Assembly (NCBI GenBank): GCA_964634395.1
Contig: CAZWJE010000004.1
Location: forward strand, 24,733-88,732
Length of the DNA: 64,000 bases
From: an uncultured Gemmatimonas sp.
GTDB taxonomy: Bacteria > Gemmatimonadota > Gemmatimonadetes > Longimicrobiales > Longimicrobiaceae
Reading direction: 5' to 3'
Shown: one piece after another, positions 2,650-51,417 of the stretch
Layout: every line of letters starts with the position of its first letter
Position numbering within the stretch: the first letter of the stretch is position 1
Position numbers and translations under genes: made by a program
Notes under the pieces: generated by a model
Seen by the model: only the letters and a program-made list of their open reading frames with translations
Database searches by the model: none
What the model was told of the DNA's origin: nothing

Positions 2650-3111
2650 ATGAAACGCGAATGGCACCATTCCGCGGGTGTGATCGTTTTCCGTGACGAG
2701 TCGCCCCGGTCGTATCTGCTCATGCGCTCGGCGGTCACCAAGCGCCCCGTGTGGGAGTTCCCGAAGGGCGCCCTCGAAACGGGCGAAACCGAAATCGAGG
2801 CGGCCGCACGCGAACTCGAAGAGGAAACGGGGCTCGGCTCGGGAGACTATACCCTTCTCGACGGTTTCCACGAAGAGGAGTGGTACTACTTCACGCGTCG
2901 ATCGGGTGACGACGTTCGCCTCATTCGCAAACGGGTCGCCTATTTCCTCGCCGAATGGCGCAGCGGAGAGGTCCAGGTCTCGCGGGAAGCATCGCGCCAT
3001 GAGTGGGCCGATGCCGAGACCGCCTTACGCATGATCAGATTCCCCGAGAAACGGCGGATCCTCGCCCGGGCCGAGGAATGGCTCACCCAGCGGGAAGGTC
3101 AACCGGGCTGA
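2650..3111 (+). CDS. NUDIX hydrolase
   Basis: Nudix box [23 protein letters not shown] (GX5EX7REUXEEXGU). Confidence 0.8.
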
Positions 3112-4439
3112 CCGCGCCGGTCGGAGTGGCCGGTCGCGATCGCCCGGACTTCCGCCGCGGCGATCGCGTCGCCAGCGTCCCACTCGGGCAGGCGGATCAC
3201 GAACTGGCTTCCGCCACCCAGGCGGCTCTGTACCTCGATCCGTCCCCCATGCCGCTCGGCGAGCAGCCGAGCGATCGCCAGGCCCAGGCCCGTTCCGCCC
3301 GACTGGCCGCGCGCCGCGTCGCCCCGGTAGAATCGGTCGAACACGCGCGCGAGCTCTTCGGGGGCGATCCCCACGCCGGTGTCGACCACGCGGACTTCCA
3401 CCCACCCCTGATGGTTCGCGTCGACCGTGCGTTTCGCGGTCAGCGTGACTGAACCTTCCGGTGTGAACTTGACGGCGTTCGACACCAGGTTCAGGAATAT
3501 CTGCCGGAGCTGGCCGGCGTGGCCCGCGACGACGAGCCGTTCGGAGGAGCGCAACTCGACGCGCAGATCCTTCCCCGCCGCCAGCATCTGCCCCATCTCC
3601 ACCACGTCCTCGAGCAGCGGAGTGATCTCGACGGCGTCGCGAGGCGTCGCCTGCCGGTCCTCCTCGCTTCGCGCGAGGGTGAGCAGGCCATCGACCAGGT
3701 GAAGCATCCACTCCGTTTCCTCGTTGACGTCCGCGAGGGTTTCACGGAGCTCGTCGGCCGTACGTTCCCGGGAGAGGGCGACCTGAACGCTCCCCTGGAT
3801 CGAGGTCAACGGGGTTCGCAGTTCGTGGCTGGCGTCCGCCGTGAAGCGACGAAGGGCTTCGACGGCGTGCTCGAGACGCATAAGCATGCCGTTCACCGAA
3901 TGCGCCAGGTCGCGCAGGTCCGAAGGGGCTCGCGGTTCCGGTACGCGACGGGAGAGCCCGCCAATCCCGATCTCGCGCGTGGTTTCCACGAGCCGGCGGA
4001 GTGGGTCGAGCAGGCGCTCGAGAAGCACGCCCCCGCCGAGCGCGGCGGCACCCGCGGTGAGGGGGATGAGCAAGAGGGAGATGATCAGGAACGACCGGAG
4101 CGCCCGGCCTTCCACATCGCCCGCCGGGGTTACCGCGACCGTGAAGACCTCGTTCGTCGCGAGCACCGTCTGCCGACGGAGTGATCGGACCGACTCACCT
4201 TGCGCGTTCTGATAGGTGACGAACTCCTCGGCGGTTTCCAGTCGTGGGATCCGCGGCGGGATGGCGACGTTCTCGACCGCCTGCGCCGTCTGGCGGAGCG
4301 ATTCCTCTTCGGCGGCCGCCAGCGTCCGCGAGAGGAGGAAGTAGGCGGCGGTCGCGAAGAGGCCCAGCGCCACGACCAGCACCAGCGAGTACCAGACGAG
4401 GATCTCGCGCCGGAGCGAAACACCCGAGGCGCGGTTCAT
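3099..4439 (-). CDS. Sensor histidine kinase (2 TM, HAMP, HisKA, HATPase_c)
   Basis: H-box [12 protein letters not shown], the N/G1/G2 boxes ([25 protein letters not shown]), and an N-terminal TM segment. It overlaps the response-regulator gene by 4 bp. Confidence 0.85.
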
Positions 4440-5113
4440 CCTTCCCTCTCCGACGCGCGGACGATATAGCCGACGCCGCGCACCGTCTGGATCAGGTCGC
4501 GGTCCGGCTGCAACTTGTTGCGCAGCGAGTTGATGAAGACGTCGACCACGTTGGTCCCAGGGTCGAAGCGGATCCCCCAGACGTGTTCCATCAGCGTGGC
4601 TCGGGTGAGGGGACGGTTGACGTTGCGGAGCAGGTATTCGAGGAGCGCGAACTCCTTGGGCGTCAGCGAGACGAGTTCGCCGCCGCGGCGGACTTCCCGG
4701 GTCGCGGGGTCGAGTTCGACCGTGCCCGCGCGCAGCACCGGCGCGGCCTGACCCCCCGAGCGGCGGAGCAGGGCGCGCAGCCGAGCGGTCAGTTCCGTGA
4801 AGTCGAAAGGCTTGGTGAGGTAGTCGTCCGCCCCGGCGTCGAGGCCTTCGATCTTGTCGTCGATCCGGTCACGGGCCGTGAGGAGCAGGATGGGGATCGA
4901 CTTGCCGGCTTCGCGCAGATCACGCACGAGTTCCAGGCCGCCGCGGCCGGGAAGCATGACGTCGACGACGGCGGCGTCGAAGTCCTGTTCCGAGGCGATT
5001 TCGTAGGCCGCGTCGCCATCTCCCGCGGTCACGACGGAATATCCCTCTTCGGTCAGGCCCTTGCGGAGAAACGCGGCGATTCGCTGACTGTCCTCGACGA
5101 CGAGTATTCGCAT
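4436..5113 (-). CDS. OmpR/PhoB-family response regulator (REC + winged helix)
   Basis: [16 protein letters not shown]...D53-like DVMLPGRGG...LLLTARD...KPFDFTEL, and a C-terminal trans_reg_C (RVGYIV). Confidence 0.9.
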
Positions 5114-5158
5114 GAGATTCGGCAGTGGCGCGCCGCCAACGGATCGGAGGCGATTGGA

Positions 5159-5197
5159 TTAATCCTGGTTAATCGAACGCTAATCGCCCGCTAATCG
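5159..5197. promoter_or_regulatory. Four direct TAATC(G) repeats at ~10.5-bp spacing in the divergent RR/htrA promoter; candidate response-regulator binding sites
   Basis: ggaTTAATCctggTTAATCgaacgCTAATCgcccgCTAATCgggg. Repeat starts are at 5160, 5170, 5181 and 5192. The region is AT-rich relative to the ~68% GC background. Confidence 0.4.
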
Positions 5198-5293
5198 GGG
5201 CCAGGAACCGCGCTCTCCACGAGCGGGTAGCACCCCACGAGACGAGGTGAATCCGTTCCGGTTACCCCGTGCATTCGGAGGAGAATACAGGGC

Positions 5294-6799
5294 ATGAACA
5301 GAATCGTTCGCACACTCGCGATCCCGACCGCCCTGGTGGTCGGCATCGGCGTAACGGCCACGGCGATGCAGTCGGTACAGGAGCCGGTCGCCTTGCTGGA
5401 CGCCCAGGCGCTCGTCGAGCCGGACCTCGCGGGCGGCGCGGAGTCGCTGGCGACTTCGTTCCGGACGGCGAGCCGGACGGCGCTTGCCGGTGTCGTTCAC
5501 GTCCAGGTCGAATCGTTACCGCGACAGGTGAGCCAGCAGGGCGGCGGGAACCCGTTCGAAGGGACTCCGTTCGAGGATTTCTTCGGAGACGATTTCTCGC
5601 GCGGGACGCCGCGGCAGCCGGCGCCGCGTAACGGCAGCGGTTCCGGTTTCATCATCAGCCCTGACGGTTATCTGATCACGAACAACCACGTCGTCGAAAA
5701 CGCGACGCGGGTGACCGTGACCATGACCGATCGGCGCCAGTTCGAGGCCACCGTGGTCGGCCGCGACCCCAATACCGATGTCGCGGTGCTGAAGATCGAC
5801 GGCAATGACCTGCCGACCGTGGAGATCGGTGACTCGGACGCCCTCCAGGTCGGCGACTGGGTGCTCGCCCTTGGCTACCCGCTCTCGCTGGGAGAGACGG
5901 TCACCGCCGGGATCGTGAGCGCGAAGGGCAAGAATATCGGTATCATGCAGCAGAACGAGGAGGCCGCCGCACCACTCGAGCACTTCATCCAGACGGACGC
6001 GGCGATCAACCCGGGCAACTCCGGCGGTCCGCTCGTCAATCTTCGGGGTGAGGTCATCGGAATCAACTCGGCGATCGCTTCGCCGACGGGCACGTATTCG
6101 GGCTATGGCTTCGCGGTGCCGATCCGTCTCGCCAAGCGGGTCGCCGACGACCTGATCGCCTACGGCGTCGTTCATCGGCCGCGGCTCGCGGTCCAGATCA
6201 CCAATGTCTCGCCGGCGGACATCGAGGTGTTCGGCCTGCCGAGCCCGGACGGCGCGGTGGTCACGACGATTCAGGATGGACCCGCGAAGGAAGCCGGTAT
6301 TCGGGCGGGTGACGTGATCGTCGGCGTCGACGGCCAGCGGATCCGTGACACTGGCGATCTCATGGAGCGTGTGGCGCTGCGCAACCCGGGCGAGAGAATC
6401 ACCCTCGAGGTGATTCGCTACGGCAAACGGGAAACCGTTCCGGTGACGCTCGGCGCCTTCGAGAACACGGTGCCGGAGCCGCCCCGGGCGGCCACGGAGC
6501 CGGAGCGGGACGCGGCGGCTCAACTCGGGTTCTCGGCGGCCGAACTCACGCCGAACCTCGCCCGTCAGATGCAACTGCGGGATACCGGCGGCGGCGTGGT
6601 GATCACCGGCGTGGAGCGTGGTGGTCCGGCGCCACAGCAGCTGATCCGTCTCCGTATCGAAAGCATCAATGGCCGTTCGATCGGGTCGGTCGATGACATT
6701 CGCGAGGCCGCCCGCGGACTCCAGACGGGCGCCACGGTTTCGATCCGCGGCGTGAATCCGGCCGGTGAGGAGACGGTGATCAACTACAGGCTCCGATAA
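5294..6799 (+). CDS. htrA: Periplasmic serine endoprotease DegP/HtrA family (trypsin-like domain + 2 PDZ)
   Basis: Signal peptide, catalytic-triad context (NNHVV, D...VAVLKI, GNSGGPLVN), and two PDZ-like segments. Confidence 0.9.
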   Translation: MNRIVRTLAIPTALVVGIGVTATAMQSVQEPVALLDAQALVEPDLAGGAESLATSFRTASRTALAGVVHVQVESLPRQVSQQGGGNPFEGTPFEDFFGDDFSRGTPRQPAPRNGSGSGFIISPDGYLITNNHVVENATRVTVTMTDRRQFEATVVGRDPNTDVAVLKIDGNDLPTVEIGDSDALQVGDWVLALGYPLSLGETVTAGIVSAKGKNIGIMQQNEEAAAPLEHFIQTDAAINPGNSGGPLVNLRGEVIGINSAIASPTGTYSGYGFAVPIRLAKRVADDLIAYGVVHRPRLAVQITNVSPADIEVFGLPSPDGAVVTTIQDGPAKEAGIRAGDVIVGVDGQRIRDTGDLMERVALRNPGERITLEVIRYGKRETVPVTLGAFENTVPEPPRAATEPERDAAAQLGFSAAELTPNLARQMQLRDTGGGVVITGVERGGPAPQQLIRLRIESINGRSIGSVDDIREAARGLQTGATVSIRGVNPAGEETVINYRLR

Positions 6800-7008: not shown

Positions 7009-7890
7009 TCAGCCGCGAAGGCCCCGAAGTACCGCGAGATTCCGTCGATCACTCGCGGTCGGATCGTCCTGCTTCGGTGTCTCGAGGAGCATCGGAAGGT
7101 CCTGGAAGCGTTCGTCGTTGACCAGGTTACGAAACCCCTCCAGTCCGATGTACCCTTCTCCGATCCATGCGTGGCGGTCGACCGCCGAGCCGAGTTTTCC
7201 CTGGCTGTCATTCAGATGCCAGACGTGGACTCGGCCCACGCCGATGAGATCGTCCAGCCGTGCCGTCACCTCTTCCCAGGAATTGGTGATGTCGTAGCCC
7301 GCCGCATAGAGGTGACAGCTGTCGAGGCAGATGCCGACACGCTCCGCGAACCCGGTCCCGTGTTGCTCGATCGCGCGGAGCATCGCCGCCAGTTCCTCGA
7401 AGGTGCTGCCCAGAATCGATCCCTTGCCGGTCGTGACCTCGAGGCAGATCCTCGTCGTGGAGTCGGGCGTCTCCTGGAGTACCGTCGCGATCGCGTCCGC
7501 GAGTCGGGCGACACCCGAGGGCCGGTCGCCGTCCGTCGCCGCGCCCGGGTGGAGCACCAACTGCGCGGCGCCGATCGTCGTACACCGCCGATACTCCGCC
7601 GCCAGGCTCGCCGCCGACTGCTCCTGGAGCTTCTCGTTTGGCGACGCCACGTTGATCAGATATGACGCGTGCACCGTGGTCCCCACGATCCCGTGCGTCT
7701 CGCACGCCGCCCGATACGCCGCGCCTTCCGTCTCGCTGAACTCAGGCTCCGCCCACCGCTGCGGTACCTTCGTGAAGATCTGAGCCCAACGGCTCCCGAT
7801 CTCTCGTGCCCGGGCCGGCGCGGTCGATACGCCGCCGCTGACGGATACGTGAGCACCGAACAGGTCGTCGATCGCAGCGGTTTCTGTCAC
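7009..7890 (-). CDS. nfo: Endonuclease IV (deoxyribonuclease IV)
   Basis: LFGAHVSVSGG...HASYLINVASP...HLNDSQGKLGSAVDRHAWIGEGYIG all match the Nfo family. GTG start at 7888-7890 with GGGAG 6 nt upstream. The 461-aa ORF in the track is an upstream read-through extension. Confidence 0.8.
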   Translation of the reverse strand: MTETAAIDDLFGAHVSVSGGVSTAPARAREIGSRWAQIFTKVPQRWAEPEFSETEGAAYRAACETHGIVGTTVHASYLINVASPNEKLQEQSAASLAAEYRRCTTIGAAQLVLHPGAATDGDRPSGVARLADAIATVLQETPDSTTRICLEVTTGKGSILGSTFEELAAMLRAIEQHGTGFAERVGICLDSCHLYAAGYDITNSWEEVTARLDDLIGVGRVHVWHLNDSQGKLGSAVDRHAWIGEGYIGLEGFRNLVNDERFQDLPMLLETPKQDDPTASDRRNLAVLRGLRG

Positions 7891-8115
7891 GTGCTTTCTC
7901 CCTGGATAAAGGCTTCCGCCAGCGTCACTGGCCGATGTGCCGGATCGTGCCGTCGTCATCCCGGCGACCCGATCCGCGCGGATCGCCCGGCCCCGGGCGA
8001 AGATGGGAATCGTACGGACGCGGCGCCGGCCGGGAAAGATCGCGAACACGTCGACCATCGCGACGACGTGCTTGACAGCGGCGCGAGCGGACCACACCTT
8101 GGCGTTCGATGTTTG

Positions 8116-8132
8116 AGAATGAGTTTCATTCT
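8116..8132. promoter_or_regulatory. Perfect 7-3-7 palindrome AGAATGA-GTT-TCATTCT ~63 bp upstream of the lipoprotein/HmuY-like/TBDR operon; candidate metalloregulator operator
   Basis: gtTTGAGAATGAGTTTCATTCTtaac in an AT-rich patch. The same core recurs upstream of feoB (14784-14800). Confidence 0.4.
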
Positions 8133-8194
8133 TAACTGGCGCTGGCCGATTCGGGCCGGCTGAACGTTTTTCGATCCGGGGGGGAGAGCATCGT

Positions 8195-9448
8195 ATGGAA
8201 TCCATCACGCCGCGCGTCGCGCGGCTCGCGCTCGCGGGCATCGTCCTGGCGAGCGTGGCGGGGTGCGGCGAGGACGTAGTCGGCCCGAAGGCCGACGTCA
8301 CTATCTGCACGACGAGCATCACGTCGGCCAACGCCGACACCTTCGTGGAGCTCTGCTCGCTCACGAATCCGGTTCGCCACGTACGGATCGACAATCTCAG
8401 CGCGCCGGCGACCCATGCGTTCTCGCAGATCGTGTTCGGCTTCCGTACACCGCCGGAGGCGACGCAGGGTCCTCTCGGCGCGGGTCAGTACAGGGTGCTC
8501 TTCTATGGAGGCGGAGTTCCCGCGCCGCCCGCTCTGGTGGATCTGACGTACGGTTCCGCGTCCGAGACGCTGGCGGGGCCGGCGGCGTTCATCAACGCGG
8601 GCGCGACGGTGTGTTTCGATCTGCATGACGGGAGCGCGACGGCCGCGCCGGCGTTCGTGCTCTGGGTCTCGGGGGAGCGCGGCGCGAACTGCGCCGACCG
8701 GAGCACGCTGACCGCGGCGACGGCGTTCGGAGTTCGGGCGGATTGGGACGGGCTGACGGGCGCGATCGACAAGCAGGCACACACCTATTTCAGGCAGTCG
8801 GTCGTGTCCGGGACGGGGCCGTCGATCACCCTCTCGGATGAGGCCGTGCTCAGCGCTGAGCAGATCGCGAGCGCGACGGCGTGCACGACCGCCTGGAGCG
8901 CGAACACCGACTGGCAGCGGCTCTGCGCTCCGGCGACCGGGACCGTCCGCCACGTGCGGCTCGAAGGGGTCGAGGCGACGGCGAACAACAGCTATTTCTA
9001 CGCGATCCTCGGGCAGGACCCCGATCCGACGGGCAACCCGGCGGCCTCGGCCGGCAAACTGATCGTCACGGGTGGCCGTTCGCACTCGGGGACGTCCTGG
9101 ACGTGGTTCCGCTTCGGTGGCGGTAGCACGACGCAGTTCAGCTATGAGGGAGACGGCGGCGCCGGGCTCTACGTCGACGGTCCGACCACGATCTGTTTCG
9201 ATCTGGGGACGGCCTCGGGTGGGCGTGCCCGGTTCGTCTTCTGGGCGACAGGCGCCAACCAGGCCGACTGCGCCGACCGTTCGACGCTCACGCTCGAACG
9301 CGCGCTCTATGACAGTTCGACGGACCCCTCGACCGCGGATATCTGGGACGCGGCGTACGTGACGGGCAAGCTCAACTTCGTGAAGACGAACACCACGAAC
9401 GTCGGGGTGGGGAACGTGGTCGTTTCTTCGGAAGCGGCGGTGCTCTGA
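8195..9448 (+). CDS. Lipoprotein with an internally duplicated domain (hypothetical)
   Basis: Lipobox LASVAGC. Two homologous halves: NPVRHVRIDNLSA...TVCFDLHDGSATAAPAFVLWVSGERGANCADRSTLT versus GTVRHVRLEGVEA...TICFDLGTASGGRARFVFWATGANQADCADRSTLT. The stop overlaps the next start (TGATG). Confidence 0.6.
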   Translation: MESITPRVARLALAGIVLASVAGCGEDVVGPKADVTICTTSITSANADTFVELCSLTNPVRHVRIDNLSAPATHAFSQIVFGFRTPPEATQGPLGAGQYRVLFYGGGVPAPPALVDLTYGSASETLAGPAAFINAGATVCFDLHDGSATAAPAFVLWVSGERGANCADRSTLTAATAFGVRADWDGLTGAIDKQAHTYFRQSVVSGTGPSITLSDEAVLSAEQIASATACTTAWSANTDWQRLCAPATGTVRHVRLEGVEATANNSYFYAILGQDPDPTGNPAASAGKLIVTGGRSHSGTSWTWFRFGGGSTTQFSYEGDGGAGLYVDGPTTICFDLGTASGGRARFVFWATGANQADCADRSTLTLERALYDSSTDPSTADIWDAAYVTGKLNFVKTNTTNVGVGNVVVSSEAAVL

Positions 9449-51089: not shown

Positions 51090-51417
51090 GGGCGAATCAC
51101 TCCGGATCGGGTGGGAGGCACGGGACCGCGTAGCGGAATCCGGGACAGGTACCGCAAGAATAATCGCTCCCCGGTGAGTTGGGAAAGGATCTCATACGCG
51201 AACCGCGAAGATCGCGGCCGCGGATCCGGGGCCCGCGCGGAACGGCGCATGGCCTCCCGGCGCTCCCGGCGGAAACGCATTCTGGCGGATGACTGTACCA
51301 TCGTGCGGGATCTGATTATGTTAAATGGCTATGCCGGATCCGGCCCCGGCCGGAACGCTGACCAGGATCAACCGAACTCCCGCGCGGGGTTAATCCCCGG
51401 TGAAGGCCCTTCCGCCT

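Follow-up and report, generated by a model that had tools for sequence, protein, structure and literature searches.

A conserved 11-bp-phased TAAYC array between htrA and an OmpR-family two-component system in Gemmatimonadota, a candidate operator of the protease gene

Members of the phylum Gemmatimonadota are abundant in soil, and to our knowledge almost none of their gene regulation has been studied experimentally. In a 64,000-nucleotide stretch of contig CAZWJE010000004.1 from an uncultured Gemmatimonas sp. (family Longimicrobiaceae; hereafter, the window), the genes of an OmpR-family two-component system (TCS) lie divergently from htrA/degP, and the intergenic region between them (5114-5293) carries a short run of phased TAATC repeats. 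This locus raises the question of which protein binds the repeats and which of the two divergent transcription units they serve. An initial annotation of the DNA had proposed that the adjacent response regulator (RR) binds them, that the TCS thereby autoregulates and drives the protease gene, and that the arrangement recalls control of degP by CpxR in enterobacteria. Our analysis makes it probable that the interval is a compound htrA operator-promoter bound by the adjacent RR, through which the TCS would activate htrA. We regard the locus as an HtrA-linked envelope or secretion-stress two-component circuit, a familiar type of pairing that changes no concept; we found no paper linking Gemmatimonadota to an htrA TCS.

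A phased repeat array conserved between htrA and the TCS genes

The TAATC motif starts at 5160, 5170, 5181, and 5192 (successive starts 10, 11, and 11 nt apart), as the initial annotation had described, and its distances to the flanking genes were also given correctly (98-134 nt from the htrA ATG and 47-83 nt from the RR ATG). The extended repeats read, in order, TTAATCC, TTAATCG, CTAATCG, and CTAATCG, and the half-site consensus is (C/T)TAA(T/C)C(G/C). The TAATC at 5160 is created within the palindrome GGATTAATCC (5157-5166), which combines an inverted GATTAA (5157-5162; TTAATC on the minus strand) with the first direct TAATC (5160-5164). It is followed on the plus strand by half-site 2 (TTAATCG, 5169-5175, with its TAATC at 5170), half-site 3 (CTAATCG, 5180-5186), located 11 nt further on, and half-site 4 (CTAATCG, 5191-5197), which follows at the same 11-nt step and stands 12 nt upstream of a GGAAC motif. 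With at least two half-sites of 5-7 bp arranged as direct repeats at a 10-11 bp period, the array is of the phased type bound by OmpR/PhoB winged-helix proteins, to which the neighboring RR belongs according to Pfam.

The arrangement is rare. Three matches to TAATC-N5-6-TAATC occur in the window, all of them in the array, compared with 0.02 expected, and none of 100 shuffles reached three; the search for this spacing elsewhere, which the initial annotation had advised, returned nothing outside the intergenic region of the 64-kb window. In the 259 kb of Gemmatimonadota DNA formed by the window and 32 further loci, all matches to the exact pattern TAAYC-N6-TAAYC (55 in number) fall in this intergenic region. 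The shorter YTAATCS motif has six matches in the window, five of which lie within 5156-5197. The sole other match, TTAATCC at 51390, is single and unphased and lies in a GGGG-TTAAT-CCCC mini-hairpin, at its loop (51378-51402), located about 25 nt upstream of an open reading frame (ORF) resembling a BipA/TypA-type GTPase. No second array site was found in the window, the one pair with a single mismatch merely overlapping this TTAATCC, and the intergenic region gave no Rfam match.

Scanning one genome per species identified 24 orthologous Gemmatimonadota loci (L001-L024), whose RR is 67-88% identical to that of the window. Lack of conservation in orthologous promoters had been named beforehand as an outcome that would refute the proposal; instead, the array and its phase were kept in all 24 intergenic regions, and so was the htrA/TCS synteny (24/24), wherever the contig reaches far enough. 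In an ungapped alignment anchored on a shared GAAC-N16-17-(G/T)GTA element, information content peaks only at the inverted aTTAa, at three TAAyC cores 11 nt apart, at GGAAC, and at G.GTA. In this alignment the cores carry 1.67 bits at a pairwise identity of 0.85 and the spacers 0.47 bits at 0.36, that is, half-sites are conserved while spacers drift, as in an operator. Counted over 21 sequences, TAA is invariant in all three direct repeats (21/21), and the inverted half-site is conserved as G14, A17, T21, T17, A21, and A17.

The orthologues place the inverted GATTAA 13 nt before their first direct repeat. Since the position of the first repeat of the window is occupied in the orthologues by this inverted half-site, the conserved layout comprises one inverted and three direct half-sites, and the sub-lineage of the window additionally reads a fourth direct copy at the position of the palindrome. 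The closest relatives (L001 and L002) possess a true fourth direct copy there. Near-identical strains from other samples (L159, L160, and L129) carry A instead of G at 5142 and 5197, neither position belonging to a TAATC core and the second lying just beyond that of half-site 4.

These data bear on two explanations that dispense with a binding protein. The first holds that the repeats arose by chance or by recent tandem duplication and have no function, for which the shortness of the array reported by Tandem Repeats Finder (11-nt period over 5170-5197, 2.5 copies) may be quoted. However, conservation is confined to the cores and does not extend to entire units, the array persists even where the RR is only 67% identical, and the shuffles do not reproduce the observed count; the orthologue comparison refutes this explanation, and the probability we leave to it is negligible. 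According to the second, the phased AT-rich islands act by themselves, strengthening the htrA promoter through intrinsic curvature or in the manner of an UP element, which would suit both the 11-bp period and the presence of TAAT islands in DNA of about 67% GC. Yet the conservation is sequence-specific and oriented: besides the invariant TAA, position 4 is T or C only, position 5 is C, and the inverted copy stands at a fixed place, whereas the spacers are GC-rich and unconstrained. We consider an effect of curvature very unlikely.

The htrA promoter-like element and the gene served by the array

Downstream of the array, GGAAC (5204-5208, plus strand) forms a -35-like element of the type recognized by extracytoplasmic function (ECF) sigma factors, and GGGTA (5225-5229, plus strand; orthologue consensus G(G/T)GTA in the anchored alignment) forms a -10-like element. 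A GGAAC -35 element with its AAC motif is a hallmark of group IV (ECF) sigma promoters (PMC1540707), and actinobacterial sigmaE/sigmaH promoters have been described as GGAAC-N17-18-cGTT (PMC10012870), which the element found here, with (G/T)GTA after a 17-nt spacer (equivalent to GGAAC-N18-GTA), resembles without being identical. By this resemblance, the htrA promoter would be ECF-sigma-like. The window contains a single GGAAC-N16-17-KGTA, which is therefore not a common promoter type there, and a search of 4900-5500 revealed neither a sigma70-like promoter nor a terminator. Among 25 intergenic regions compared, nGAAC and the complete GAAC-N16-17-KGTA are present in 24, the latter 47-81 nt before the htrA ATG; it occurs once each in 23 regions, and L006 has a second, GAAT-type match far upstream. 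A Shine-Dalgarno sequence (GGAGGAG, 5277-5283, plus strand) precedes the htrA ATG (5294) by 10 nt, with GGAGG-like sequences at the same place in the orthologues, and htrA transcription is predicted to start near 5236-5239, leaving a 5' untranslated region of about 55-58 nt. A minus-strand GAAC-N16-TGTA over the htrA start codon (5309-5286) was treated as a chance match because it lies in coding sequence and because several orthologous htrA genes lack the required plus-strand GTTC at their 5' ends.

The array keeps a fixed helical register to this predicted core promoter. In 24 of the 25 sequences, the start of the last half-site lies either 12 nt from GGAAC or, in L008, L014, and L018, 23 nt from it, which corresponds to 12+11 nt, i.e. 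one helical turn more. In contrast, the RR start codon of an orthologue may stand as near as 23 nt to the array or more than 460 nt away, and where 100-470 nt of extra DNA is present, the array stays beside the htrA promoter. The direct repeats also point toward htrA. Because the array keeps a constant distance from the htrA promoter-like element but a variable one from the RR start, and because its repeats face htrA, it is most likely an htrA element in the first place, and the 12/23-nt register fits activation of the protease gene. In L007 and L012, the enlarged intergenic region contains, between the array and the RR gene, short tandem minisatellites, e.g. (CAGTGCC)n and (GTGCGAGA)n.

The same distances allow us to weigh the opposite assignment, in which the array is mainly an autoregulatory operator of the leftward promoter of the TCS operon and htrA is driven by the ECF-like promoter alone. 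Such an assignment gains from orthologues with a short intergenic region (L013, L015-L017, and L019), in which the RR ATG lies 8-11 nt from the inverted half-site, which leaves room only for an RR promoter that overlaps the array, unless the RR mRNA is nearly leaderless. It also gains from orthologues with a long intergenic region (L009 and L020-L024), in which an element oriented toward the RR gene stands at a constant 34 nt from the inverted half-site, as TTAATC-N34-(G/T)GTA(T/C)A with GGGGCC about 17 nt upstream of GTA. It is, however, the htrA side to which the register is fixed and toward which the direct repeats face, and we judge a mainly autoregulatory role distinctly unlikely. Autoregulation of the TCS operon, which the initial annotation had proposed together with control of htrA, is retained as a possibility beside the latter.

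A second copy of GGAAC-N17-GGGTA was observed in three other loci, on the minus strand in each (L163, approximately 6440-6466; L017, approximately 145-170; L127, approximately 1375-1401). It precedes a small Cys/His-rich membrane ORF of 119 aa without a Pfam match, followed by a gene whose 417-aa product carries a signal peptide, ends in Phe, and on these grounds looks like an outer-membrane protein. The element may mark a further member of the sigma regulon to which htrA would belong; neither the 119-aa nor the 417-aa protein has an orthologue in the window.

The adjacent regulator as the candidate binder

The gene next to the array (4436-5113, minus strand) encodes a 225-aa RR of the OmpR/PhoB family, composed of a receiver (Response_reg, PF00072, 9e-30) with D51 in a VVDVMLPG context and a winged helix (Trans_reg_C, PF00486, 6.9e-26), whose recognition helix is nearly invariant across the 24 orthologues, in keeping with the invariance of the half-site core. 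The start of the histidine kinase (HK) gene (3099-4439, minus strand) overlaps the RR stop in the window (4436-4439). The HK contains HAMP, HisKA, and HATPase_c domains (Pfam), and hydropathy places two transmembrane segments at about residues 11-40 and 113-141, enclosing an extracytoplasmic loop of about 70 aa and followed by HAMP, which is the usual topology of an extracytoplasmic sensor. The divergent htrA/degP gene (5294-6799, plus strand) encodes a 501-aa serine protease with Trypsin_2 and PDZ domains (Pfam), an N-terminal hydrophobic signal or anchor, and the His/Asp/Ser motifs NNHV, TDVA, and GNSGGP, which belongs to the Do family with a score just above the TIGR02037 cut-off (417.4 vs. 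416.2). The flanking genes are thus those that had been read from the sequence at the outset, and a TCS operon divergent from an HtrA-family gene constitutes a neighborhood of the CssRS type.

Neither TCS protein reaches an NCBIfam equivalog cut-off. The best match of the RR is TIGR01387 (230.7 vs. a cut-off of 279.2) and that of the HK the heavy-metal HK subfamily TIGR01386 (247.5 vs. 292.55), and with both scores below the cut-off, membership in the heavy-metal subfamily (CusRS/CopRS/CzcRS) is not supported. We rejected a named orthologue of the RR (CpxR, CusR, or other) as every curated cut-off was missed; its PDB neighbors are generic OmpR-family proteins, and "CusR" labels in JGI records are nearest-KO names. 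Relatives of the RR up to 97% identical are encoded in Gemmatimonadota and Longimicrobiaceae metagenome-assembled genomes, and an identical RR is encoded on contigs from four sequencing runs.

If the array is a real operator, it could nevertheless be bound by a regulator encoded elsewhere, with the adjacent TCS merely a conserved neighbor. OmpR-family paralogues are abundant (7,980 proteins at E<=1e-30), and similar half-sites serve unrelated regulators, e.g. the YTTAAK/CTTAAT of PmrA. However, htrA, the array, and the TCS genes have been inherited together in all 24 genome loci, as well as on every metagenome contig long enough to show them, the motif is found nowhere else in the 259 kb, and divergent TCS-htrA pairs under direct control are known (PMC10433416, PMC6057675). 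We consider a binder from elsewhere unlikely.

We therefore return to activation of htrA by the adjacent RR. In this mechanism, the HK would sense an extracytoplasmic signal, leading to phosphorylation of the RR, which would then occupy the four half-sites, probably in the form of two dimers aligned along the same helical face. With half-sites centered at roughly -76, -65, -54, and -43 from the predicted htrA start, the bound RR could recruit or stabilize RNA polymerase at the ECF-like promoter GGAAC-N17-GGTA, and more of the secreted HtrA protease-chaperone would result. The inverted half-site nearest the RR gene may provide feedback on the TCS operon.

Several observations weigh against this mechanism or parts of it. 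Variants of the recognition helix (DVFIN vs. DVCVN) and of the half-site (TAATC/TAACC/TAATG) show no covariation, which also favors a different binder, and it is the conserved neighborhood alone that links the array with this particular RR. Nor is the layout the simplest one for head-to-tail dimers, since the direct repeats are odd in number and are joined by an inverted copy. On the promoter side, L005 keeps the array without GAAC-N16-17-KGTA, the GTA of the -10 element is unlike the usual CGT/GTT of ECF promoters, and the search for an ECF sigma gene was negative: in the window, a crude tblastn probe with RpoE and SigW sequences gave weak hits and no plausible ORF, and none appears in the 10-kb flanks of two orthologous loci. 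As no such gene was found nearby, the sigma assignment derives from promoter resemblance only.

The resemblance to Cpx noted in the initial annotation holds for the design and not for the identity of the proteins. In Escherichia coli, the degP promoter is sigmaE-dependent. CpxAR controls degP there as well, and the CpxR box is GTAAA-N5-6-GTAAA (PMC9600279). Both systems pair an OmpR-family RR and a membrane kinase with phased direct repeats ahead of the gene for an HtrA/DegP protease, and both suggest two-input logic, the promoter found here being ECF-sigma-like (GGAAC-N17-GGTA). Yet the half-site in this Gemmatimonadota locus is TAAYC and not GTAAA, the divergent neighbor of the TCS is htrA and not cpxP as in E. 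coli, and neither protein is an orthologue of its Cpx counterpart: the 25 top-scoring NCBIfam models for the RR do not include CpxR, and against CpxA the HK reaches 131.7, with the cut-off at 486.

The gene arrangement itself has counterparts in the Bacillus subtilis CssRS secretion-stress system, in which htrB is divergent from cssRS (PMC6057675), and in Streptomyces, where CssRS/CutRS are linked with HtrA genes (PMC10433416). In all of them, an OmpR-type TCS lies beside and divergent from an HtrA-family gene, which the TCS controls in those hosts, while here such control is predicted from the neighborhood. Those hosts differ in being monoderm, and the NCBIfam matches listed for the RR include no CssR model. 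We know of no report of an operator with an inverted and three direct TAAYC half-sites at 11 bp for CssRS/CutRS. The Streptococcus CiaRH system activates htrA directly through TTTAAG-N5-TTTAAG, located 10 bp upstream of the -10 element (PMC3091779), and thus shares a hexamer direct repeat, the 11-bp period, and a TTAA core with our array. In contrast, the two CiaR half-sites replace the -35 element of a sigma70 promoter, whereas three to four half-sites stand here upstream of a separate GGAAC; the recognition helices also differ (VVEVYVSKVRKKL being one of the compared pair), and the lineages are unrelated.

The closest half-site is that of PmrA/BasR, whose box is a direct repeat of YTTAAK, with CTTAAT as the Klebsiella half-site (PMC10927774). 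This is nearly the same as CTTAATC/CTAATC here, in the same 11-bp direct-repeat geometry, and BasR is among the solved structures that match the RR over its full length (E 3.5e-40). PmrA, however, targets lipid A modification and not htrA, and the RR scores 187 on the PmrA model compared with a cut-off of 330; the half-site resemblance is not evidence of orthology.

A more far-reaching proposal would be a Gemmatimonadota-specific (Longimicrobia-type) envelope-stress pathway, not described before, in which an unclassified OmpR-family RR on a four-site operator co-activates an ECF-sigma-dependent htrA promoter, a convergent re-invention of the control of degP by CpxR and sigmaE; we put it forward tentatively and consider it somewhat doubtful. 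The locus offers a sharply defined candidate operator, with (C/T)TAA(T/C)C half-sites repeated every 11 bp and set at a constant helical position relative to GGAAC-N17-KGTA, together with an obvious candidate regulator. It adds what appears to be a further independent case of an HtrA protease wired to a dedicated neighboring TCS, and may serve as a starting point for working out how promoters of the phylum are built and which genes form its envelope or secretion-stress regulon, for which the position-weight matrix is directly usable on complete genomes.

Distant loci and the surrounding genes

A metagenome collection was scanned with the pattern TAAYC-N6-TAAYC-N6-TAAYC-N8-GAAC, which gave 78 hits. 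Eight high-GC hits also showed the upstream G/C-ATTAA and the downstream KGTA; on these contigs the array adjoins an htrA homologue in eight of eight cases and an RR homologue in six of eight, and the TCS genes and htrA occur together on every metagenome contig long enough to show both. A ninth contig (L129), from a strain of the organism of the window, ends before the -10 element. The remaining approximately 69 hits were rejected as regulon members, consisting of telomere-like TAACCC repeats, minisatellites, or AT-rich chance matches, and a threefold TAATCTG in a 44-nt gap inside an operon (L136) was considered unrelated. No second target of the array was found in the 259 kb of loci or in the metagenome pattern scan, whole genomes being unscanned.

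The surroundings of the module are conserved as well. In the two loci compared (L163 and L164), a NUDIX hydrolase gene follows the kinase gene and an AP_endonuc_2 gene follows htrA. The window has a NUDIX ORF at 2650-3111 (plus strand) and an AP_endonuc_2 ORF (xylose-isomerase-like TIM barrel) at 7009-8394 (minus strand), the latter being on the opposite strand and longer than its counterparts (461 aa vs. 272-281 aa). The RR and HK genes, which overlap in the window, are set apart by approximately 230-440 nt in some orthologues (10681-10959 in L013/L163, 3672-4115 in L015, and 2378-2608 in L016).

More distant RR relatives are accompanied by repeats of other kinds. In NC10/Methylomirabilales (L025-L027; RR 57-58% identical), (A/T)AATCTG(C/T)G repeats with a period of about 9 bp occur 20-60 nt upstream of the RR start; no divergent htrA is present in these loci, and an HtrA-like gene lies downstream of the kinase gene instead. 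These AATCTGCG repeats suggest a shared AATC core, but they are too different and were not counted as evidence. In loci from Gaiellaceae/Actinomycetes (L042 and L043; RR approximately 50% identical), an htrA-like gene is again divergent from the RR gene. L042 carries an 11-bp phased array of its own (2907-2966), with four CTAAGAG/CTGAGAC copies and an inverted CTCTTAG, and the array of L043 (2925-2967) is shorter and less regular. The design of the TCS-htrA module thus appears to recur across phyla with a different half-site, and the Gaiellaceae module with its CTAAGAG arrays may hint that this design is ancient and cross-phylum.

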